Assembly (NCBI RefSeq): GCF_037042905.1
Contig: NC_087251.1
Coordinates: forward strand, 744,001 to 808,000
Direction of reading: 5' to 3'
Length of the DNA: 64,000 nucleotides
DNA from: Lytechinus pictus
Taxonomy: Eukaryota
This document shows positions 3,369 through 53,095 of the stretch, piece after piece. The notes beneath the pieces are model-generated. The model was not told where the DNA came from, did not search any database, and was given only the letters and a program-made list of their open reading frames with translations. Made by a program: the position numbers and the translations under genes. Each line of letters starts with the position of its first letter. Positions within the stretch are counted from its first letter, which is position 1.

Positions 3369-3396
3369 AGTATGGTCTGATAAGCAGGTAAGGCAC

Positions 3397-4295
3397 TAGC
3401 CTCTTGTCGAGGCCCTGTCGGCTGCTTTCCAAACGAACATGGCTAAGCAAGGGAGAGAGCGAAGCAGAGCGCTGCGAGACAGGGCCTCTAGACATCTGGG
3501 CTGAATTTCTTTTGTTTATTATTGTTTTTTTACCAATATTCCGACCAAGAACTGGTCGGTGAAAATCATCCAATGAGAGCGCGGGCCGCTATGACGTCAT
3601 ATTGAATATTCATGAGCTCATCTTGAATGGCGACCCGTGGATTCTTGGCGAAGAGTGACGACAAAATATGAAAGAGCATTGAATATGCCTCTAAAAATGC
3701 TGAATATTGACCGATTTAAGGATTTGCAATTCTATGAAATTAAATCTGCACTGACAGGACGAGATGTTTTGTAAATATACCCACAGGATATGGAAAAAAT
3801 GTAATATTTTTCAGCGATTCCACTATGCGTCGATTATCGATCTCCTCTGTGCAGTGAGGGATTAATGCTGGAGTGGAGCTTCCCCTTGACTCGAGTCTGA
3901 CCAGCGGCTGACCAGTATCTCCCAGGAAGTTTTGGGGTGGTGATGGGTCTGCATGTTACGGCCAGTACTATAGTAGTAGCAGTAGTATAGTACCACTACT
4001 TGTAGCATTTTGCTGGTTATATCCCCTTTAGTGTCCCGCAATTAAATGAATCCCCTGCAGAATAGTGGACTACTATAGTATTCCGAAACCCGGACGAAAC
4101 AGCTTTGACATTTCATTAGTTTACTAGGTGACCGGTAATATCATGACTCATGTATATTCATTAGGAAGACGTTCCTCGTGAATATATAATTCAGCTCATA
4201 TGTCAAGAGGCCCTGGCTCGCGCCAGGCCTAATTCGAATTAGGAAATCCCTCGCTTCGCTCGGGAAGCAGCCGCCAAGGCCTAGACAAGAGGCTA
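3397..4295 (+). mobile_element. Non-autonomous AcademH-type DNA transposon (899 bp)
   Basis: Imperfect TIRs of ~34 bp beginning TAGCCTCTTGTC. Exact 9-bp TSD GTAAGGCAC at 3388-3396 and 4296-4304. Contains an internal RecQ-type helicase remnant. Confidence 0.8.
3627..3837 (+). pseudogene. Frameshifted N-terminal fragment of a RecQ-like SF2 helicase
   Basis: Manual translation across frameshifts: VDSWRRVTTKYERALNMPLKMLNIDRFKDLQFYEIKSALTGRDV / VNIPTGYGKNVIF / AIPLCVDY. This fits RecQ motif 0 (F..Q) and Walker A motif I (GRDVxVxxPTGxGK). Confidence 0.8.
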
Positions 4296-5121
4296 GTAAG
4301 GCACGAGACTCAAGCTCGCTAGCTTAGCAGCTACCCACAGCGCCCATGCCCAAATACACGATTGGAAAGTAAGTTCCTGTATTTTGCCTTCACACTGCCA
4401 AAATACCTGTAACATTGGACCAAAATCCCCGCAAATTTTGTTGTCATTTATACAAGTACCTAGTATTTAGCAGGTAATTTCTTTTGGGGATATTACGTTA
4501 ATTTGCTTTCACATTGCCAAAATTACCTGGTATTTTCTGATGAGGGTAGATCAGGGAAAATTTCCCGATCAGAGAATACCTGGAACTTACGAACTTCGAG
4601 GCAGTCTGAATATGCCTAGAGACTAGAGAATATAGGTAGGCAGGTGTATGATAGGGAGTATCTTATAACAAACAACTATGCGTCTTGTCACTTCTCATCA
4701 CATCAACATTGTATTTACAGCTTCCAATTTACACTTTTCTTGTCTATTCTCTGCTATCTTGTTACCCCTCTGCTCCAATCTTAAAACGTCTACATTGAAT
4801 ATTAATCCAAAATAATTGTATTCAGGCAAGGATCCAAAATTAAATTTTAATTTCAATCGAAAGGAACTGTTATTTTAATTACTGGAGAGGGTCTGTTTGG
4901 TGTGATGGCATGAGGAATATTTTTTTCAGTTTTTCAAACAACTTTGCTGTGATGTGTTTGTAATTAAACCAAGATCTAAGTAAACTTGCGACCTTACAAG
5001 TAAAAGCTTACTTAGCAAGTAAAATTTCATGATTGTGTTTTCTTTTTATATTTTGAATATATGTATGTCATTGTAATTTGATTCATCCCTAAATTTTGGA
5101 CTTTGAACTATAGCAGTTATA

Positions 5122-9280: not shown

Positions 9281-9946
9281 TACCCCTTTCATATTGCGCT
9301 TTTCACCGGCGAAGTTCACCAGCGAAGGGGAAAGTGTCCAGTATGAAAGGTACACAGGAGAACTTCACCGGTGAAGTTCACCGGCGAACTTCTCCACCTC
9401 TAGAGGTGGAGAACTTCGCCGGCGAAACTGTTTCACCGGCGAAGTTCGCCGGTGAAAAGGCCAGTATGAAAGCAAACCGGAGAACTTCTCCTCTTTAATG
9501 ACGTCAGAGGTCAATTTTTTTCTCTCCCGAAGTCCCCTGTACCGAGATTCCGCGCGCAATAGTTGCAAGCTCAGCTGAATGCTATGGCCAAGTAGATACC
9601 CTCAATCATAATATTTTTTTACTAATAGTATTTATTAAAAAGCACTTTTTACATGTATAAAATGCGCTAAAATATAAACACAAGGTGATATTGTTTGTTT
9701 TTATTGTAATACTTCCAAAATATGTTGTAATTAATTTTTTTGATACCTTTTTGTAATAGGTAAAAAGTAATGTTTACAATATTCTTTTGTTTGTTGTGCA
9801 ATTGCCCGTTGACTTTCGCCGGGGAAGAAATGTCAGTGCGAAAGGGTACATTTTTTTCTTCGCCGGGGAAGTGAGGAATGCGAGGCGATGAAATTCGCCG
9901 GCGAAGTTCGCCGGTGAAAAATGAAGTGGGCAGTATGAAAGGGGTA
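9281..9946 (+). mobile_element. PIF/Harbinger-type MITE family I, copy 1
   Basis: TIR TACCCCTTTCATA, flanks gta/tta, many TTCRCCGGYGAA subterminal motifs. Closely similar copies at 13619 and 26198. Confidence 0.9.
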
Positions 9947-13618: not shown

Positions 13619-14428
13619 TACCCCTTTCATATTGGGCTTTTCACCGGCGAACTTCACCGGCGAAGTTCGTCAGCGAAGGGGAAAGTGTCCAGTATGAAAG
13701 GTACACAGCAGAACTTCACCGGTGAAGTTCACCGGCGAACTTCTCCACCTCTAGAGGTGGAGAACTTCGCCGGCGAAACTGTTTCACCAGCGACGTTCGC
13801 CGGTGAAAAGGCCAGTATGAAAGCAAACCGGAGAACTTCTCCTCTTTAAACACGTCAGAGGTCAATTTTTTTCTCTCCCGAAGTCCCCTGTACCAAGATT
13901 CCGCGTGCGATAGTTGCAAGCTCAGCTGAATGCTATGGCCGAGTAGATATCCTCGAACATAATTTTATTTTTTACTAACAATATTTATTAAAAAGCACTT
14001 TTTACATGTATAAAATGCGCTAAAATAAAAAACAAAGTGATATTGTTTGTTTTTCTCGTAAAACTTCCAAAATATGTTGTAATTAATTTTTTGTATACCT
14101 TTTTGTAATAGGTAAGAAGTAATGTTTACAATTTTCTTTCGTTTGTTCTGCACGTGCCGAGCACTGACTAAATCAAGGGAATACTGACACTGTTTACTAG
14201 ATCTAGCCGTCATCTTGACAACTTTACTATAAGTTAGATCTCCACAATTAAAGGAAATAAATAATTGTGGTGCCGCGGAAATGCCGAATGGGGCCAATCG
14301 CCTGTGACTTTCGTCGGAGAAGAAATGTCAGTGCGAAAGGTACTTTTTTTTTCTTCGCCGGGGAAGTGAGGAATGCGAGGCAGAGAAGCTCGCCGCCGAA
14401 AAATGAAGAGGGCAGTATGAAAGGGGTA
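13619..14428 (+). mobile_element. PIF/Harbinger-type MITE family I, copy 2 (144 bp extra segment)
   Basis: TIR TACCCCTTTCATA and TSD TTA/TTA. Extra segment at 14153-14296 relative to the other two copies. Confidence 0.9.
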
Positions 14429-16035: not shown

Positions 16036-16618
16036 AGGAGAATGAAACCCTTGAAACCAGCTGAATCCATATCAAAGAGAAAAATCAAAGAAACATATTG
16101 TTGAAAGTTTGAGGAAGATTGAATGAATAATAAGAAAGTTATGAGCATTTGAATATTGAGATCACTAGTGCCATGTAGATCCTCCCATCGGCAATGCGAC
16201 CAAGATCTGTGATGCCACACACGTACAACTCCCTCATTACTTTAGTACTTATTTCACTTATATTCTCACTTTTATAGAGTCTATCACAAGGTGAGGTGTT
16301 CTCTTTATGAGATGACAAGTACACAGGTTTCACAACATTATATCATTGATGAATCGTTTGTCATATGATTAGAATGAGCAAAAAGAGATGTTTTGGGGTA
16401 TATTTTCAGTGTCCAAATGGGAGAGTTGTACGTGTGTGACATCACAGATCTTGGTCGCCTTGCCAATGGGAGGATCTCCATAGCATTAGTGATCTCGACA
16501 TTCAAATGCTCATAACTCTTTTATTCCTAGTCCTATTTTACTCAAACTTTTGTTGATCTTATTCTTTGATTTTTCTGCTTTCACAAAAGCTAACTTGCTC
16601 CAAGAGTTTCATTCTCCT
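16036..16618. mobile_element. Kolobok-type MITE (583 bp) inserted in the satellite
   Basis: TTAA TSD at 16032-16035 and 16619-16622. Termini AGGAGAATGAAAC...GTTTCATTCTCCT with ~200-bp imperfect TIRs. TTAA plus purine-purine termini fits Kolobok rather than piggyBac (CC termini). Confidence 0.85.
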
Positions 16619-19600
16619 TTAAGAAAAGCATCTCGGTATTATCAGGATACAACCTTAAGAAAAGCATCTCAGTATTATCAGGATACAACCTTAAGAAAAG
16701 CATCTCAGTATTATCAGGATACAACCTTAAGAAAAGCATCTCAGTATTATCAGGATACAACCTTAAGAAAAGCATCTCAGTATTATCAGGATACAACCTT
16801 AAGAAAAGCATCTCAGTATTATCAGGATACAACCTTAAGAAAAGCATCTCAGTATTATCAGGATACAATCTTAAGAAAAGCATCTCAGTATTATCAGGAT
16901 ACAACCTGAAGAAAAGCATCTCCGTATTATCAGGATACAATCTTAAGAAAAGCATCTCAGTATTATCAGGATACAATCTTAAGAAAAGCATCTCCGTATT
17001 ACCAAGATTCAACCTTAAGAAAAGCATCTCAGTATTATCAGGATACAACCTTAAGAAAAGCATCTCAGTATTATCAGGATTCAACCTTAAGAAAAGCATC
17101 TCAGTATTATCAGGATACAACCTTAAGAAAAGCATCTCCGTATTATCAGGATACAACCTTAAGAAAAGCATCTCAGTATTATCAGGATACAATCTTAAGA
17201 AAAGCATCTCAGTATTATCAGGATACAACCTTAAGAAAAGCATCTCAGTATTATCAGGATTCAACCTTAAGAAAAGCATCTCAGTATTATCAGGATACAA
17301 TCTTAAGAAAAGCATCTCAGTATTATCAGGATACAACCTGAAGAAAAGCATCTCAGTATTATCAGGAAACAACCTTAAGAAAAGCATCTCCGTATTATCA
17401 GGATACAACCTTAAGACAAGCATCTCCGTATTATCAGGATACAACCTTAAGAAAAGCATCTCAGTATTATCAGGATACAACCTTAAGAAAAGTATCTCAG
17501 TATAATCAGGATACAACCTTAAGAAAAGCATCTCAGTATTATCAGGATACAACCTGAAGAAAAGCATCTCAGTATTATCAGGATACAACCTGAAGAAAAG
17601 CATCTCAGTATTATCAGGATACAACCTTAAGAAAAGCATCTCCGTATTATCAGGATTCAACCTTAAGAAAAGCATCTCCGTATTATCAGGATTCAACCTT
17701 AAGAAAAGCATCTCCGTATTATCAGGATACAACCTTAAGAAAAGCATCTCAGTATTATCAGGATACAACCTTAAGAAAAGCATCTCCGTATTATCAGGAT
17801 ACAACCTTAAGAAAAGCATCTCCGTATTATCAGGATTCAACCTTAAGAAAAGCATCTCCGTATTATCAGGATTCAACCTTAAGAAAAGCATCTCAGTATT
17901 ATCAGGATACAATCTTAAGAAAAGCATCTCAGTATTATCAGGATACAACCTTAAGAAAAGCATCTCAGTATTATCAGGATACAACCTTAAGAAAAGCATC
18001 TCCGTATTATCAGGATACAACCTTAAGAAAAGCATCTCAGTATTATCAGGATTCAACCTTAAGAAAAGCATCTCCGTATTATCAGGATTCAACCTTAAGA
18101 AAAGCATCTCCGTATTATCAGGATTCAACCTTAAGAAAAGCATCTCCGTATTATCAGAATACAACCTTAAGAAAAGCATCTCCGTATTATCAGGATACAA
18201 CCTTAAGAAAAGCATCTCAGTAATATCAGGATACAGCCTTAAGAAAAGCATCTCAGTATTATCAGGATTCAACCTTAAGAAAAGCATCTCCGTATTATCA
18301 GGATACAACCTTAAGAAAAGCATCTCCGTATTATCAGGATTCAACCTTAAGAAAAGCATCTCAGTATTATCAGGATACAACCTTAAGAAAAGCATCTCCG
18401 TATTATCAGGATACAACCTTAAGAAAAGCATCTCCGTATTATCAGGATACAACCTTAAGAAAAGCATCTCAGTATTATCAGGATACAACCTTAAGAAAAG
18501 CATCTCAGTATTATCAGGATACAACCTTAAGAAAAGCATCTCAGTATTATCAGGATACAGCCTTAAGAAAAGCATCTCAGTATTATCAGGATACAGCCTT
18601 AAGAAAAGCATCTCAGTATTATCAGGATACAACCTTAAGAAAAGCATCTCCGTATTATCAGGATACAACCTTAAGAAAAGCATCTTCGTATTATCAGGAT
18701 ACAACCTTAAGAAAAGCATCTCAGTATTATCAGGATACAACCTTAAGAAAAGCATCTCAGTATTATCAGGATACAGCCTTAAGAAAAGCATCTCAGTATT
18801 ATCAGGATACAGTCTTAAGAAAAGCATCTCAGTATTATCAGGATACAGCCTTAAGAAAAGCATCTCAGTATTATCAGGATACAACCTTAAGAAAAGCATC
18901 TCCGTATTATCAGGTACAACCTTAAGAAAAGCATCTCAGTATTATCAGGATACAACCTTAAGAAAAGCATCTCAGTATTATCAGGATACAACCTTAAGAA
19001 AAGCATCTCAGTATTATCAGGATACAACCTTAAGAAAAGCATCTCAGTATTATCAGGATACAACCTTAAGAAAAGCATCTCAGTATTATCAGGATACAAC
19101 CTTAAGAAAAGCATCTCAGTATTATCAGGATTCAACCTTAAGAAAAGCATCTCCGTATTATCAGGATTCAACCTTAAGAAAAGCATCTCAGTATTATCAG
19201 GATTCAATCTTAAGAAAAGCATCTCAGTATTATCAGGATACAACCTTAAGAAAAGCATCTCCGTATTATCAGGATTCAACCTTAAGAAAAGCATCTCCGT
19301 ATTATCAGGATTCAACCTTAAGAAAAGCATCTCCGTATTATCAGGATACAACCTTAAGAAAAGCATCTCAGTATTATCAGGATACAACCTTAAGAAAAGC
19401 ATCTCAGTATTATCAGGATACAACCTTAAGAAAAGCATCTCAGTATTATCAGGATTCAACCTTAAGAAAAGCATCTCCATATTATCAGGATACAACCTTA
19501 AGAAAAGCATCTCAGTATTATCAGGATACAACCTTAAGAAAAGCATCTCAGTATTATCAGGATACAACCTTAAGAAAAGCATCTCAGTATTATCAGGATA

Positions 19601-21810
19601 CAACCTTAAGAAAAGCATCTCAGTATTATCAGGATACAACCTTAAGAAAAGCATCTCAGTATTATCAGGATTCAACCTTAAGAAAAGCATCTCAGTATTA
19701 TCAGGATTCAACCTTGAGAAAAGCATCTCCATATTATCAGGATACAACCTTGAGAAAAGCATCTCCGTATTATCAGGATTCAACCTTAAGAAAAGCATCT
19801 CAGTATTATCAGGATTCAACCTTAAGAAAAGCATCTCAGTATTATCAGGATTCAACCTTAAGAAAAGCATCTCAGTATTATCAGGATACAACCTTAAGAA
19901 AAGCATCTCAGTATTATCAGGATACAATCTTAAGAAAAGCATCTCCGTATTATCAGGATACAACCTTAAGAAAAGCATCTCCGTATTATCAGGATACAAC
20001 CTTAAGAAAAGCATCTCAGTATTATCAGGATACAGCCTTAAGAAAAGCATCTCAGTATTATCAGGATTCAACCTTAAGAAAAGCATCTCAGTATTATCAG
20101 GATACAACCTTAAGAAAAGCATCTCCGTATTATCAGGATACAACCTTAAGAAAAGCATCTCAGTATTATCAGGATACAATCTTAAGAAAAGCATCTCAGT
20201 ATTATCAGGATACAATCTTAAGAAAAGCATCTCAGTATTATCAGGATACAGCCTTAAGAAAAGCATCTCAGTATTATCAGGATTCAACCTTAAGAAAAGC
20301 ATCTCCGTATTATCAGGATACAACCTTAAGAAAAGCATCTCAGTATTATCAGGATACAACCTTAAGAAAAGCATCTCAGTATTATCAGGTTACAACCTTA
20401 AGAAAAGCATCTCCGTATTATCAGGATTCAACCTTAAGAAAAGCATCTCAGTATTATCAGGATACAACCTTAAGAAAAGCATCTCAGTATATTATCAGGA
20501 TACAACCTTAAGAAAAGCATCTCAGTATTATCAGGATACAACCTTAAGAAAAGCATCTCAGTATTATCAGGATACAACCTTAAGAAAAGCATCTCAGTAT
20601 TATCAGGATTCAACCTTAAGAAAAGCATCTCAGTATTATCAGGATTCAACCTTAAGAAAAGCATCTCCGTATTATCAGGATACAACCTTGAGAAAAGCAT
20701 CTCCGTATTATCAGGATTCAACCTTAAGAAAAGCATCTCAGTATCATCAGGATTCAACCTTAAGAAAAGCATCTCCGTATTATCAGGATACAACCTTAAG
20801 AAAAGCATCTCCGTATCATCAGGATACAACCTTAAGAAAAGCATCTCCGTATTATCAGGATACAACCTTAAGAAAAGCATCTCAGTATTATCAGGATTCA
20901 ACCTTAAGAAAAGCATCTCAGTATTATCAGGATTCAACCTTAAGAAAAGCATCTCAGTATTATCAGGATTCAACCTTAAGAAAAGCATCTCAGTATTATC
21001 AGGATACAACCTTAAGAAAAGCATCTCAGTATTATCAGGATTCAACCTTAAGAAAAGCATCTCAGTATTATCAGGATTCAACCTTAAGAAAAGCATCTCC
21101 GTATTATCAGGATACAATCTTAAGAAAAGCATCTCAGTATTATCAGGATTCAACCTTAAGAAAAGCATCTCAGTATTATCAGGATTCAACCTTAAGAAAA
21201 GCATCTCAGTATTATCAGGATACAATCTTAAGAAAAGCATCTCCGTATTATCAGGATACAACCTTAAGAAAAGCATCTCAGTATTATCAGGATACAATCT
21301 TAAGAAAAGCATCTCCGTATTACCAAGATTCAACCTTAAGAAAAGCATCTCAGTATTATCAGGATACAACCTTAAGAAAAGCATCTCAGTATTATCAGGA
21401 TACAACCTTAAGAAAAGCATCTCAGTATTATCAGGATTCAACCTTAAGAAAAGCATCTCCGTATTATCAGGATACAATCTTAAGAAAAGCATCTCCGTAT
21501 TATCAGGATACAACCTTAAGAAAAGCATCTCCGTATTACCAAGATTCAACCTTAAGAAAAGCATCTCAGTATTATCAGGATCATACAACCTTAAGAAAAG
21601 CATCTCTGTATTATCAGGATACAACCTTAAGAAAAGCATCTCCGTATTACCAAGATTCAACCTTAAGAAAAGCATCTCAGTATTATTAGGATACAACCTT
21701 AAGAAAAGCATCTCCGTATTATCAGGATACAACCTTAAGAAAAGCATCTCCGTATTATCAGGATACAACCTTAAGAAAAGCATCTCGGTATTATCAGGAT
21801 TCAACCTTAA
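16619..21810. repeat. 36-bp tandem satellite/minisatellite, ~144 units, consensus AAGAAAAGCATCTCAGTATTATCAGGATACAACCTT
   Basis: Direct reading shows register repeating every 180 bp (5 units). A few recurrent substitutions, and indels near 18914 (-1), 20489 (+2) and 21581 (+3). A 12-bp remnant ttaagaaaagca resumes at 23442. Confidence 0.98.
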
Positions 21811-23441
21811 AGTTGAATTAAGAAGAAGGTGAGTTTCCATAAATATGGGTTCCACACACAATATATAGTATATATCAGTTGTTCAAACAGATAGCATGTC
21901 ACAAAAATCCTCTGCCTTCTCGATATTTTGCTTTGAAAGTCTATGAAATTAGCCACCTGTCAGAGCCCGAGAGACAAGTGTACAGAAAAATCACTTTGAG
22001 TGTGACGTCATCGGGGGGGGGGGGGGGGAATATAGTATAAGAGGTGTCCGGGTGTAATACAGAAATGCTATGCAGAAAGACAAAGATGATTTTACAATTT
22101 TTTTTCAAAGCAACTCAAATCAAACAAATAGGAATCATATGTACAAATCTTTACTTTCCCTGTATAAAAAACATTATGAATAACTATCATGAACTCTTAA
22201 ATCATGATGTAAGATTGCAAACAGTGAGTTATTGAATGAAATTTTCACTATTTCTCATTTATTTTATCACGATGTTCCATCAAGTGAGTAGCTGGAAAGT
22301 AATTCTGGCGGCTAGCTCAGCTCTGCGCGCGCTGCACGCCTATACAATACACACAACACCCAGGCATTGAGTGTACTGTAGTGGTCTGGTACTTCGACCC
22401 GCAGTTCATGACCATGCAGCGATCCCCTGGCGTCTTTTTCTTCTTTCCTTTTGTCTTTGACTCCATTTTTATATCCTCTGGATCATTTCCACTCATAGCT
22501 CATTCCACAGAACAATCTAGAATCAAACGTACAATTCTTCTCGGCCTTCCGAGTTGTTTTCTATATTTAATTACGCTAGAGGTCATCGTCACACATACAA
22601 ACGCAATTCGCAAGTGATTTGAAGACAGCAAGAAAGGTATGCGGTATGGTAGCTCGACAGCTAGCTGAGCCGCAGCGGGCGGCCGGTCGGCACAAAGCAA
22701 TTCCGCAACCTACTGTGTTTTTTGCAAGAGCCGCGTCACACGCAGATAAATATGTCATAATAACACGTCTGCTACGTTATCGACCGGTGAGAAGATCTCG
22801 ATCAAATTTCATATTATTCGCCTTGAAATTATTCCTTTAGGGTCTATGGTATCATTCTGAGGGAATTTACATATTTGGAATAATAGTACGGCCATAAATA
22901 TACTTTTAATCATTTCCTCTTTGCAAGTTCTCCGGCTCACAGATACAACTTCAACTGCAGTTTATTCCATTATGACTTGTTCTGCCACGGACACAGTCCC
23001 GAACGAAAACAAGGCATTAAAATCGTCTAAAATCGCTACAAAGAAGAACAGTTTTAACAATGTAGGGATATATTATTGACTATATGTCTTTGAATAATTA
23101 TTACTTCCTTTCAGTATCGTTCACATAAAATCAATAGCGATAAAATTAAGTTTTGACACAAAAGTAAATATGAAGGCGTACGTGCATAGTACACAAAACG
23201 GCACTGCCTTGTTTACTACACCGGGACCGAATTCCCACCGTGACGTCACAGTCAAAGAACACCCGTCTCGGTAGGCATTGCAGGAGCCAACTCAGGGAAA
23301 ATGGGTAGGGATAAATCGTTCAAATCCACTATTTTGAAAAAAGAAAATGGGGGGTCGAATCACCTCTTAGTGTTTGGGGGGTTGTAAGGTTGCTATTAAT
23401 GTAAATATCTCAATATTTGGAATCGTCTTCTTAATTCAACT
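21811..23441 (-). mobile_element. Internally deleted Kolobok-type transposon (1631 bp)
   Basis: 16-bp perfect TIR AGTTGAATTAAGAAGA. TTAA TSD at 21807-21810 and 23442-23445. Contains a THAP-like ORF start. Confidence 0.85.
22317..22496 (-). pseudogene. Truncated THAP-domain N-terminus (transposase remnant)
   Basis: 59-aa ORF MSGNDPEDIKMESKTKGKKKKTPGDRCMVMNCGSKYQTTTVHSMPGCCVYCIGVQRAQS. CxVxxC...HxxP resembles the THAP start. The later conserved Trp and CxxH are missing. Confidence 0.6.
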
Positions 23442-26197: not shown

Positions 26198-26785
26198 TAC
26201 CCCTTTCATACTACCCTCTTCATTTTTCACCGGCGAACTTCTCCGCCTCGCATTCCTCACTTCCCCGGCGAAGAAAAACATGTACCCTTTCGCACTGACA
26301 TTTCTTCCCCGGCGAAAGTCAACGGGCGATTGCAGAACAAACGAAAGAAAATTGTAAACATTACTTCTTACCTATTACAAAAAGGTATCAAAAAAATTAA
26401 TTACAACATATTTTGGAAGTATTACGATAAAACAAACAATATCACCTTGTTTTTATATTTTAGCGCATTTTATACATATAAAAAGTGCTTTTTAATAAAT
26501 ATTGTTAGTAAAAAAAAAAAAATGTTCGAGGGTATCTACTTGGCCATATAGCGTTCAGCTGAGCTTGCAACTATCGCGCGCGGAATCTCGGTACAGGGAA
26601 CTTCGGGAGAGAAAAAAATTGACCTCTGACGTCATTAAAGAGGAGAAGTTCTCCGGTTTGCTTTCATACTGGCCTTTTCACCGGCGAACTTCACCGGTGA
26701 AGTTCTCCTGTGTACCTTTCATACTGGACACTTTCCCCCTTCGCTGGCGAACTTCGCCGGTGAAAAGCGCAATATGAAAGGGGTC
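26198..26785 (-). mobile_element. PIF/Harbinger-type MITE family I, copy 3 (inverted, internal deletions)
   Basis: Reverse complement of 9281-9946 with TSD TTA/TTA. Lacks the TCTAGA-centred hairpin. Confidence 0.9.
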
Positions 26786-36006: not shown

Positions 36007-36575
36007 ATGCATAAAAAGTAGCAATTGTAGTCATTGCTTCAAGCACAAGCAATCGCTAGCCATGCGAAAGGTCACACCTTTAATAGCAATTGCTCTATTT
36101 TGTATGCATAACCCTTTGCCTTTTCTTGCCTTCTGATAGCAATTGCTAGCAGTTTGAGTGACATCATGCTGGTGCAAACACAAATCACAGATCAAAAGCG
36201 CTGGACTTGTATGCAAAGGGTCACCTGAACTGGCAGTACAAATTATACTGCTTCTCTCATGTAACATCTTTTCTTTTAGATGTGGTGTCAAACTACTCCT
36301 TTGACTCGTTTCTAATAAATAAATTTGTAAGTGACGTTTGGTTAGCACTTTTGAGGAAGAAAACATACAGGATACAACTTGGGGTTCTCTCTCAGGTCAG
36401 TGCATAAACATGATTACAAAAAGTGGATGCCCTGATCAAGCAAACACTTAAGCTGGGATGATGGAGGTTGGTAAAAAAAAAACAAGCAAATGCATAAACG
36501 CACAAGCAAAAGGTTTGCTTTTTGCATATTCTTTTAGCAAAGGCCTAGCAAAAGCAATTGATATTTTTTATTCAT
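36007..36575 (-). mobile_element. Old MITE family M, copy 1
   Basis: Imperfect TIR atgcataaaaagtagcaattg / caattgatattttttattcat. 36290-36560 is the inverted homolog of the element at 41470-42937. Confidence 0.65.
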
Positions 36576-41469: not shown

Positions 41470-42937
41470 GAAAGTAGCAATTGCTTTTGCTTGGTTTTTG
41501 CTTGATTCCATATGCATAAAAATAAGCGAGCAAATGCTAGCTAGTAACAGTCAGACCGCAGGTCCCTATGCTAATGAGCAAAAAGGCCAGATTCATCCAA
41601 ATCATCTCGTGGCTGAATCCTCCTCCTTGCAAAATCTCGTGATTCGTGAGATTTTCTTTCCCTAAGAATTTACCTGTTTTAACCTCAAGTTAAATGAAAT
41701 ATTATTGCACCATCAGATAGAGTAAAAGTTACTCTTTCATATTGGTCATTTATTTTGTATACAATATTTTGTTAAATAAGTAAATTTCTGACCTGAAATT
41801 GTGCCTCAAAACTGAATTTTCCTCCTCTGTTTTCTTTTGCAAATTGTGCAAAACTTTTTATTTTGAGCCTCAATGATATCTATATCACCATAAAGCTGAA
41901 CTTCTGTACTTTCTCACAATGCCACTCTTGATATGCGGCACCTTTTAATCGGGTCAAGATCACACTTTTCCCACCAAGGTACAAGACGAGATTTCTGAAA
42001 TTTTGTATTTGCATGAAATCCAGAGTTCTGATTGGCTGGATAAGGTTCACAGAACAACAGGCGCGGGGTATTTGAGGAGATTACCACATGGGAAGTGTGA
42101 CCTTCCCACGAACCCAGGCACTGGAACCGTAGGAATTTGCCATTGTGTGGTCTTTTTGACCAATCAGAGTGCAGTATACTTGTTTTCAAGCTGCTTTATG
42201 TACTTGGCAAATGAAAAGTGTGATCTTGACCCGATTAAACCAATTCTTATTTTGAAACCTATATCATTTCAAAGCATACATATTCAGCTTTATCATGATA
42301 TAAAAATTTGGGCTCAAACAAAAATAAAGTGTGAAAATAGCAGCTTTTGTCAGGTGAAAATATTTATTTTGTAGCATATTTTAGATCAAAATTTTAACCT
42401 ATATTACAAAATCTTTGAATAAATCCAAACACATGACCTGAAAGAATGATTCTTCTTCTTTACAATGGTACCAAATTCATGAAATTCGATGCATAATTAG
42501 AGCAGCAATGACCGAATGAAAAGAGGTGTTTTGGTCCGCATCAAGCTCATTAAATATGCAAAACATCTCAAGTCATGAATATCACTTGGATGAAAGAAGC
42601 CACTTTCTTGGGACCTGCAGTCTGACTGGTAAGTTCAAGCAATCGGTAATTGACTCTTAGCACTTCCCTGACAATTAGGCTATTGCTAAAAAGTGTATGC
42701 ATAATACGAACATTTTGCTTGTGCGTTTAAGCACTTGCTTGGTTTTTTTTTTTTCAAGCTTCGTCAGAGCAGCTTGAGCGTTTGCTTGATCAGGGCGTTC
42801 ACGTTTTTTAATCATGTTTATGCTCCAGAGAGTGAACCCCAAGGTGTACAGTAATCTACATGTACATGTTTTCTTCCTAGTAAGTGCAAACCAAATGCCA
42901 AATATATAAATTTATTAAAAAGAAGTTAGTTTGACAC
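41470..42937 (+). mobile_element. Old MITE family M, copy 2, interrupted by 41548-42628
   Basis: Begins aaagtagcaattgcttttgct. The portion after the insertion matches the reverse complement of 36290-36540. Confidence 0.65.
41548..42628. mobile_element. Non-autonomous DNA transposon with 4-bp TSD (1081 bp; Academ- or Sola-like, unassigned)
   Basis: 19-bp TIR CAGTCAGACYGCAGGTCCC. TSD GTAA at 41544-41547 and 42629-42632. Confidence 0.85.
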
Positions 42938-44500: not shown

Positions 44501-44974
44501 GGTGGTTTCAGACCGCCTCGAAGTTCGTCAGTCCCAGGTATTCTCTGATCGGGAAAGTTAACCCGATCAGAAAATACCAGGTATTTTGGTAATGTGAAAG
44601 CAAACTACGCGTAATTTCCCCGGAAGAAAATACCCGCTAAATAGTAGGTACTTGGCAAAATTACGAGAACTTTCACGGGGATTTTTCCAAGGTCGCAGGT
44701 ATTTTGGCAATGTGAAAGCAATTTACGGGAACTTTTAGCCCAGCGTGTCGTTGGGCGCGGGCGCCGTGGGTGGCTGCTGGGCTAGTGGTTTTGAATCTCG
44801 CGCCTTGCCTGCTTATTAGACCATACTGCGCATGCTCCTAACTTCAGGAATTTATCCCGAAGAGTATGTTTCGGGGCGGTGTGAATGCAGGAATAATTAA
44901 TGGGTATTTTTTAGCCTAAAAATGTTCTCGTAATTTAACGGGGATTCTTGTGATCGAGGCGGTTTAAAACCGCC
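44501..44974 (+). mobile_element. Harbinger-type MITE family H, full copy (474 bp)
   Basis: 21-bp imperfect TIR ggtggtttcagaccgcctcga / tcgaggcggtttaaaaccgcc, flanks aaa/taa. Fragments of the family occur at 3369-4616 and 30591-30735. Confidence 0.85.
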
Positions 44975-45754
44975 TAAACAGTGTTAGGAATGTGTACAAA
45001 TATTCTTTCTGCCTGATTGAGTGTGATCACCCTGGAGGTATCCTCACTTGGTGACCTCGATGACCTCATAGCCGAGGTCACGCCCTTCTGAGGTCACTCT
45101 GGATACTTTCATTCTTAATCTTATCTTTGTTATTCTAGCTGAAAGCCAGACATGAAAATTGCACCAATCTTTCTCCATGCACTGCCCTTTTCATTTCACT
45201 TTCAAATCTTGCTTGAGTTTGTGCAATCATCTACTTGTTACTACATGCATGGACGATAGTGTTTAACTATTTCATACAATGTAGTTCATGTCAAGAAAAC
45301 TTTTCCTTTTCTATTGAATATATCATTGTTGGTACTGAGAACTGAAAATAATGCAGTAAGCCTTCATCGAGTCTGTTTTACCTTTCATAGCTTCATCCAT
45401 CTGATCAATCAATTCCTGATACTAGTATAAGCTAATGCAAAAGTATAATGCCATATGAGAGACATTAATGTCACTTTGTAACAAGTCAATTTGCTGATGG
45501 TGCCAATGACATGGACATGGTATTATCTTTAGAAGCAATTAGATTAGTGTACCATTATAGAGCATGTCAAAACAACATGCCAATGTTTGAATGCTCTCCA
45601 GGGCTAGACATACCTGCCCAAGGTGACAGTCCAACTGGATGAGTTTGTTGAGACCTGTTCACATTCACCTACCTCAACCTCTCCTCAATAAGCCCATTCA
45701 ATGGGAACAGGTTCAACATGACTGTGAGCATTCCAAGATGCAGGAAAGGTCTAA

Positions 45755-51213: not shown

Positions 51214-53095
51214 AGGAGAACTATATTGAAAATCGTAAAAATTGAGAATCATATATCAAATCAAAGGAGAAAATAAGGAGAACACGATGGTGTACATCAT
51301 TTATCATGGAGACCGATGGAACTCAGTTAATTGATAGTTTAAAGTTTTCTCTCTGAATGCTTCAAACACGCAGAATTACGTCCGCGAAATTGGGGATTTT
51401 TTATGACGTCACTTTCTGTACGAGAGGTGTGATTGGCTCTCCCACGTGAAGCTCCACTTGCATGCAAAACCTGTTGCGAGGGTACGTTTTCTCCACATTG
51501 TCACTGAATACTTCGATCACGAAATGAAAGATAACCCAGAATTTTATCTAGATTTGGATTTTCAAATTGATGATTTTGAAGATGAAGAGAATGATGATGA
51601 AGTGAACAACAAAGTGACGTAGTTGGGGGTAAATTGGGGGAATCGATGATGATGAGTCGGACAATTCAACTTGCAACACGATCACATGCCGATTCGCTAC
51701 CAACTCATGCAGCTGCTAAGTTCTAGCTACACCGCGCGTGCCAAATTGAATTCACGAAAATGACTTACCACACTGTCCAGACAGAGTCTCTTACTTCTGT
51801 GACTATGAAGAAGGAAAATAATGATAAAACTGTACTTACAAATAAGTGAATGTAATCCGAACCTGAAGGCAAATCAACTCAACGAATAGCAGCAGACGAT
51901 ATGCACCGATGATAAACTTCATGTGGCTGGGATAGATTGTCACTCGTTCTGTTAGATGTAATTTTTATCTCATTAATTTGACAAAATTACGAAACTCGGG
52001 GAATTATTTATCTATATAAAAATATAGTAACATCTCGTATAATTTTTAAATTACGATAAAACGTTTTTTGAAGGAAAACGTTGAGGGAAATTAAATTTAG
52101 ATGTAAAAGATCCCCAACATGCGTAGCTTGATTGAGAGCTGTGCAACACGTGCATAGATCTACTCTCTCAGCCAAGGCGAGAAAGCGATATGGCATGTTT
52201 GTGATTTTGATTACGATCACATATACGAGCTTTTAAAAGGTTTTATCGTAATTTAAAAAATAATACGAGATGGTACTATATTTTTATATAGATAAATAAT
52301 TCCCCGAGTTTCGTAATTTTGTCAAATTAATGAGATAAAAATTACATCTGACAGAACGAGTGACAATCTATCCCAGCCACATGAAGTTTATCATCGGTGC
52401 ATATCGTCTGCTGCTATTCGTTGAGTTGATTTGCCTTCAGGTTCGGATTACATTCACTTGTTTGTAAGTACAGTTTTATCATTATTTTCCTTCTTCATAG
52501 TCACAGAGGTAAGAGACTCTGTCTGGACAGTGTGGTAATTCATTTTCATGAATTCGATTTGGCAAGTGCGGTGTAGCTAGCACTTAGCAGCTGCATGAGT
52601 AAGGTAGCGAATCGGCATGTGATCGTGTTGCAAGTTGAATTGTCCGACTCATCATCATCGGCGTAATTCCCCCAATTTACCTCCAACTACGTCACTTTGT
52701 TGTTCATTTCATCATCATTCTCTTCATCTTCAAAATCATCAATTTGAAAATCCAAATCTAGATAAAATTCTGGGTTTTCTTTCATTTCGTGATCGAAGTA
52801 TTCAGTGACAGTGTGGAGAAAACGTACACTCGCAACAGGTTTTGCATGCAAGTGGAGCTTCACATGGGAGAGCCAATCACGCATCTCGTACAGAAAGTGA
52901 CGTCATCAAATTCAAGTCAATTCAGAGACCGATGCGAGGCATATTTCGGAGAGGCATTTTGAGCGTTTTTTAATCGGCGATTTTCACCTTATGTATTATT
53001 TTCGTTATTTTTGAATGACCCACTGATAATCCCCACATCATTACCTTTCCATTGACATATAATAAGACCTCATTCATAATCAATATAGTTCTCCT
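51214..53095. mobile_element. Kolobok-type non-autonomous element (1882 bp) with large internal foldback
   Basis: 16-bp perfect TIR AGGAGAACTATATTGA. TTAA TSD at 51210-51213 and 53096-53099. Confidence 0.88.
51403..52906. repeat. Long inverted repeat: ~665-bp arms (51403-52067, 52235-52906), ~170-bp spacer
   Basis: The arms read as reverse complements with only scattered substitutions and small indels. Confidence 0.95.

Follow-up and report, generated by a model that had tools for sequence, protein, structure and literature searches.

The terminal letters TAG...CTA are a trait of Academ DNA transposons, and the AcademH lineage of the Academ superfamily is reportedly the one set out by Kojima in 2020 (Mob DNA 11:15). 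Kolobok elements leave a 4-bp TTAA duplication, and Mutator elements have long terminal inverted repeats (TIRs) and target-site duplications (TSDs) of ~9 bp. Ds-type and MITE-like derivatives of DNA transposons arise by internal deletions, keep their ends and are amplified in trans. The passages of PMC10045372 at hand give AcademH TSDs of 9-10 bp and AcademX TSDs of 3-4 bp, tie the difference to a helicase in the former and a nuclease in the latter, and state that TSD length seems related to the helicase. The available part of PMC10799480 names AcademH among the sources of DEAD and Helicase_C domains, while an excerpt of PMC9587614 describes KolobokH as fungal. According to a portion of PMC5751038 (2017), the RNase H-like domain of Academ matched no Pfam family.

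Here we describe an 899-bp element in a stretch of Lytechinus pictus DNA of 64,000 nucleotides, the whole of which was analysed and is called the window. Judged from its sequence, the element very probably belongs to a non-autonomous family of cut-and-paste transposons of the AcademH type; it is a clean case of a known, little-studied transposon group and not a new kind of system. AcademH had been named in an earlier, sequence-only reading of this DNA, and the name is supported by the 9-bp TSD, the TAG...CTA ends, a place in the transposon-type helicase branch and the layout of a related locus, L022. The likeness to AcademH lies in that TSD and layout, in a RecQ-like helicase of the DEAD / Helicase_C type and in the animal host. 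The element differs in being non-autonomous, in its length (899 bp against 5,738 bp for L022), in having no transposase, and in carrying only about one quarter of the helicase, decayed and with an insert of ~45 codons between motifs I and Ia. AcademX, of the same superfamily, was considered and set aside, as the element has a 9-bp TSD and a helicase piece whereas AcademX has 3-4-bp TSDs and a nuclease instead of a helicase (PMC10045372, in part). KolobokH, likewise a DNA transposon with a RecQ helicase (from an excerpt of PMC9587614), was also rejected, as the helicase of our element starts beside the left end and the context is animal. As with Ds-type and MITE-like deletion derivatives, the ends are kept, the coding capacity is lost, amplification would have been in trans and the copy is nested in another repeat; unlike them, the element can still be recognised as gene sequence over half of its length.

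Ends, target site and copies of the element

The element occupies positions 3397-4295, with TAG at 3397 and CTA at 4295 (Table 1). Its first 12 bases form a perfect inverted repeat with the other end, and each end carries a bipartite TIR of ~110 bp with arms of 43 nt (86%) and 34 nt (88%), which bears out the TIRs that had been proposed. Exact copies of the 9-mer GTAAGGCAC flank it at 3388-3396 and 4296-4304. This duplication starts with GT and ends with AC, such that the letters alone equally fit ends at 3395/4297 and a 5-bp duplication; since the loose ends of other copies pile up at 3397 and 4295, the TSD is 9 bp, within the 9 or 10 bp of AcademH. The exact 9-bp TSD of the earlier reading was thus confirmed by the repeat itself, by an empty paralogue and by the contig ends at 3397/4295. 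Within a span of 6 kb, no other perfect 12-bp inverted repeat of the 64-kb window lies between exact 9-bp direct repeats. With up to 3 mismatches allowed, the 18-base end pattern has 2 matches in the window, where 0.06 are expected, and none of 100 shuffles reached 2. The left TIR (3397..3507) folds as DNA with a z of -2.7, a 20-nt inverted motif is common to 4147-4166 in the right subterminal stretch and to 3597-3616, and the element contains no ORF of at least 100 aa.

Table 1. Features of the element and of its target repeat, in window coordinates
Feature	Position	Strand	Basis or remark
MITE-like host repeat, target of the element	3369..4610	+	Pieces 3369-3396 and 4305-4610; 78% to uninterrupted copy
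Left TSD copy	3388..3396	.	Exact match to 4296-4304; once in empty paralogue at 44800-44808, 2 differences
Left TIR, bipartite, TAG start	3397..3507	+	Inverted motif pair at 3405 (+) and 3494 (-); contig breaks with unlike flanks
CCAAT box (3570) and CRE-type octamer (3592)	3570..3599	+	Upstream of likely start codon; putative helicase promoter relic
Decayed 5' part of RecQ-like SF2 helicase gene	3627..4069	+	Profile and relative matches; at least 5 frame pieces
Right subterminal stretch past deletion point	4070..4187	.	By analogy with L022, may be upstream region of lost transposase gene
Right TIR, CTA end	4188..4295	-	Inverted motif pair at 4201 (+) and 4287 (-); contig breaks at 4295
Right TSD copy	4296..4304	.	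Exact; spanned by 298-base X1 contig

The element interrupts a MITE-like repeat, of which an uninterrupted copy lies on the minus strand at 44507-44827 (78% over 307 bp). This empty paralogue holds the 9-mer once, at 44800-44808, with two differences, which together with the TSD shows that the element entered an older MITE-like repeat through a staggered cut of 9 bp. Over its full length (44507-44985, minus strand) the repeat measures ~475 bp; its ends are inverted over ~22 bp, direct repeats lie inside it, and it may be PIF/Harbinger-like. The copy around the element is truncated, without ~150 bp on the left and the final bases on the right. By its very high summed depth in the comparison of sequencing runs, the repeat is a high-copy one.

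Copies of the element were surveyed in four of 24 public runs, standing for three organism codes, at 80% likeness, and the whole interior was covered in all four. Among the matches listed, 30 contigs of run X2 break at 3397 and 32 at 4295, as does one contig of X12 at 4295. The X2 flanks beyond the two ends are unlike one another (agreement 0.38 at 3397 and 0.39 at 4295). Since the contigs leave fixed ends into many unlike flanks, this is a multi-copy family; summed depth is no measure of its copy number, but the loose ends of X2 imply at least tens of sites. Shared ends, unlike flanks and the lack of an intact ORF characterise it as a non-autonomous DNA transposon family. A 298-base contig of X1, which may be the source sample, spans the right junction (4247-4541) with no differences, and a single 577-base X12 contig covers 3527-4064. 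The end of the helicase match is crossed by contigs 4014-4281 and 4035-4211 in X2, 4025-4156 in X1 and 4035-4156 in X12, and the bridge over 4069-4100 was seen in contigs of the same three runs. The sequence-only reading had described an internal-deletion derivative, which agrees with the 5' helicase piece and the retention of both ends; it is not a single broken copy, as the deleted form itself has been replicated as a family.

Judged by the matches listed, several frame breaks are confined to the window copy or recent: the base at 3693 is missing from most other copies, the stop at 3670 is replaced in most of them, and the length at 3810-3813 differs in most. A break near 3766-3770 is common to most of the copies listed; the extra base near 3766 accounts for 163 of 3,122 in summed depth in X2, 0 in X12, 229 of 363 in X1 and 6 of 30 reads in X24. 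Several X2 contigs also join 3430-3483 to 4235-4246, skipping 756-815 bases between the ends. These are either ~150-bp miniature derivatives or single quasi-palindromic ends placed on both sides.

The decayed helicase and its relatives

Half of the element, from an ATG at 3627 to ~4069 (~148 codons), consists of a helicase fossil that runs through motif I to motif Ia, about the first quarter of the helicase. Its frame pieces comprise the start, the motif-0 region, motif I, a low-complexity insert and motif Ia; because motifs II-VI are missing, it cannot give a working helicase. The frameshift noted earlier was upheld, with FKDLQ and GRDV sharing one frame and VNIPTGYGK in another. A RecQ-like start had been placed around motif I, correctly as to its kind and too narrowly as to its extent. 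Longer relatives placed back on the element gave ordered matches over ~3650-4072 in three frames, and a motif-Ia profile matches 3998-4069 (E 0.0002). The ~45-codon insert between motifs I and Ia is common to the fossil and to its relative P0003. A check of the peptide against helicase profiles had been suggested: a Pfam scan of the window frames in 3 readings gave no helicase match, while relatives P0003 and P0004 match DEAD (E 5.6e-5 and 9.9e-6; 23.4 and 25.8 bits against a Pfam cut-off of 26). No transposase similarity was found in the window at E<=0.05. P0001, searched against a 5.8-billion set and the PDB, had no relative, with chance haemagglutinin matches only (E 0.24 or worse).

A one-frame HMMER scan of 1.84 billion representatives gave 4 matches at E<=0.001. 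The best by E-value, P0002, was discarded as a spurious match to an unrelated repetitive protein; each of P0003-P0005 is a short helicase start, encoded on an ENA contig of 0.7-1.0 kb. The best solved relative of P0003 is human RECQ1 (26.6 bits), with BLM and RECQ5 scoring less, and an ESM Atlas search with P0003 returned DEAD clusters at 0.95. Searched alone against longer proteins, P0003 matched none of 763 candidates at E<=0.001. A profile of P0003 and P0004 matched 60 longer proteins among 2,689 candidates at E<=10, led by Ptychodera and Oculina, and 59 of the 60 contain PF00270.

From these 60 we built two profile sets under labels of our own, 22 stand-alone invertebrate-type helicases and 15 canonical RecQs, with 23 left out. 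The fragment, with X at each break, scored 67 bits with the stand-alone invertebrate profile versus 46 with the canonical RecQ profile, and the best 23 of its 41 pairwise matches are all of the stand-alone invertebrate type. In a tree of 47 rows made with the quick IQ-TREE method, the fragment joins P0003 and P0004 (SH-aLRT 91) inside a 28-row branch (SH-aLRT 100) together with the helicases of loci L021, L022 and L032; this branch holds none of the 19 canonical RecQs (fungal, protist, bacterial and viral). The fragment thus groups with transposon-borne RecQ-like SF2 helicases, in a tree where its row fills 18% of the columns and which includes no animal host RecQ. A helicase profile found 19 loci at 23-32% identity in viral contigs, four of which were placed in the tree and grouped with canonical RecQ.

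Seven proteins of marine invertebrates (P0009, P0033, P0034, P0036, P0045, P0052 and P0062) also sit in the transposon-type branch, under names that include RecQ-like, Q1-like, Q5-like, WRN-like, hus2/rqh1 and Mediator-34-like. By their position in the tree, they are probably misnamed AcademH helicases. Proteins that bear labels such as 'RecQ-like', 'Q1-like' and 'WRN-like' in marine invertebrate gene sets can therefore be transposon helicases.

A scan of genome_contigs gave 13 loci, of which eight at 31-41% identity were examined and five of Bdellovibrionota type (24-27%) were compared by DNA only. The eight are filed as contigs of prokaryote metagenome-assembled genomes (MAGs); their split ORFs and MITE-like repeats suggest animal host DNA. 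L022 (9788-15525) measures 5,738 bp and has TAG...CTA ends, near-perfect TIRs and an exact 9-bp TSD. A DUF6589 gene (E 3e-34) runs inward from the right end, convergent with the helicase gene, whose start is at most ~200 bp from the left end; both ORFs are long and open. DUF6589 probably marks the Academ transposase, a reading backed here by the gene pairs of L021 and L022; a literature search on DUF6589 or the transposase returned no publication with DUF6589 among the matches listed. L022 is a complete AcademH-like element and apparently young, close in length to the mean of 5,565 bp that the accessible part of PMC10294476 gives for curated bivalve Academ elements. Its 2.8-Mb contig, registered as a Nitrospirales MAG, comes from the same assembly as L026 and L033 and is probably animal host DNA in a MAG assembly.

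The same pair of helicase and DUF6589 genes, tail to tail, is present in L021, for which no element ends were found. L032 (1,468 bp, TAG...CTA, exact 9-bp TSD) carries only a 5' helicase piece ~200 bp inside its left end, and L026 (901 bp, TAG...CTA, no TSD) also has a 5' helicase piece. Such ends were not identified in the other four of the eight loci. A TAG end with a helicase start ~150-250 bp inside is seen in L022, L026 and L032, whose terminal letters are those of our element. Because the element DNA shows no similarity to L001-L033 beyond one 18-mer, L022, L021, L032 and L026 are analogues and not the parent. The end pattern had no match in viral contigs; its one metagenome match, 18 bases in an archaeal-looking contig, was dismissed as chance, with no further similarity, so neither collection yielded a parent with these TIRs. 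Separately, the whole 3.8-kb contig of L023 (1-3794) frames a helicase piece with long inverted ends that match perfectly, and is either an element or an assembly artefact.

Each end of our element carries two inverted copies of one motif, which make up four of its five matches in the window. The pairs span 90 and 87 bp in the element (94 with a 7-bp insert of other copies), and the spans at the two ends differ by 0-1 bp in L022 and L032. L022 and L026 each carry a related inverted pair in their ends, and the ends of L032 hold the inner half of such a pair. The inverted motif pair is most likely the site where the transposase binds.

Origin, promoter relic and alternative readings

The family needs a past transposase source. 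The parent would have been laid out like L022, with a RecQ-like helicase gene running inward from the left TIR and a transposase gene running inward from the right. One internal deletion may have taken out the entire transposase gene together with the last three quarters of the helicase gene, leaving a remnant of ~900 bp with both ends that parent proteins could move in trans through its terminal motifs. The unlike flanks show that the remnant then spread to tens of sites or more. The helicase piece would be a passenger adjoining the left end, since inward-facing genes leave their 5' ends beside the TIRs, and its decay appears to fall partly before and partly after the spread of the family.

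The earlier reading had also pointed to CCAAT and TGACGTCA motifs at 3570-3599, and these are located as claimed, at 3570 and 3592. Both are frequent words: the window holds CCAAT 78 times on the plus strand and TGACGTCA 10 times. Related loci were compared over a 180-bp stretch ahead of motif I, with L033 dropped as of the same family as L026. CCAAT occurs there in 6 of 8 loci, or in 5 of 7 when the window is left aside (P ~0.035); the exact TGACGTCA occurs in 2 of 8, or in 1 of 7 when the window is left aside (P 0.11). Half-sites that resemble a CRE more loosely, picked after looking, occur in 4 of 7. RNA run X24 gave 1,105 reads, of which four are at least 99% alike and 84% run on into unlike sequence; there is no start or end pile-up, and antisense reads outnumber sense reads, provided that the library follows the usual design. 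Because these reads come almost wholly from other copies, they say nothing on the promoter of the window copy. That the helicase promoter was kept is thus a fair reading on weak comparative grounds, chiefly CCAAT, and finds no functional backing in X24; the motifs faintly suggest a putative promoter relic upstream of the fossil.

Capture of the 5' end of a host RecQ gene by a Mutator-type (Pack-MULE-like) element would also account for a 9-bp TSD and TIRs of ~110 bp, the element contains no transposase to decide, and the tree lacks animal host RecQ. Nevertheless, the fragment prefers the transposon-type profile by 21 bits, the 26.6 bits of its nearest open relative, P0003, on human RECQ1 are low for a piece of an orthologue, and both the TAG...CTA ends and the layout, a helicase start ~150-250 bp inside a TAG end, recur in L022, L026 and L032. 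We consider such a capture very improbable; with a window row filling 18% of the columns and animal host RecQ absent, the tree only makes it unlikely. Descent from another helicase-bearing transposon, such as KolobokH, is extremely improbable: KolobokH too encodes a RecQ helicase (PMC9587614, seen in part), but the 4-bp TTAA duplication of Kolobok does not fit 9 bp.

A different question is whether the retained gene start has a use. The promoter and helicase start might be needed in cis for mobility, or a short helicase peptide from sister copies might dampen the parent. Retention of the 5' part alone recurs in the element family, L032, L026 and probably the 0.7-1.0-kb contigs of P0003-P0008; P0003 is nearly open up to the end point of the fossil, and the breaks near 3670, 3693, 3766 and 3810 are missing in some copies. 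However, internal deletion that spares the ends always keeps the 5' starts of inward-facing genes, our searches selected for 5' helicase pieces, the break near 3766-3770 is common to most copies among the matches listed, and the X24 RNA shows neither pile-up at a start or end nor, if the library is usual, more sense than antisense reads. We regard a function of this kind as quite unlikely and prefer the passenger reading. A broader and still unlikely proposal is that AcademH ends are extended cis modules that join an inverted motif pair within each TIR to a CCAAT/CRE promoter and the first ~150 helicase codons, kept repeatedly in the non-autonomous families of unrelated marine animals for mobilisation or for a motif-I-only peptide from open sister copies, which would regulate the parent helicase. 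If this were true, such families could serve directly as minimal substrates for asking why cuts of the helicase lineage have a 9-bp stagger.

The value of the AcademH-type assignment lies mostly in annotation, as it supplies a well-bounded non-autonomous AcademH family. Additionally, the 899-bp element and L022, although of different families, point to a minimal donor and a pair of enzymes for a test of the role of the helicase in Academ transposition.

Other features of the window

On the minus strand at 926-1243 lies a cysteine-rich ORF with no Pfam match, presumably resembling an exon of a CRIM1/kielin-like gene; no further cysteine-rich exon of this sort was found on the minus strand of the window. 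Degenerate inverted repeats at 36332-36535 and 42689-42900 stand ~6.5 kb apart, with no helicase or DUF6589 similarity between them. At 16590-21880, ~5 kb of a 30-bp tandem repeat has long open frames on both strands, with a 161-nt inverted repeat at its flank (16078-16576). A 1.5-kb foldback element with arms of ~650 bp (96-100%) was found at 51399-52910, and a dispersed palindromic repeat of short GC-rich inverted units recurs at 9286-9920, 13624-13823 and 26661-26780.
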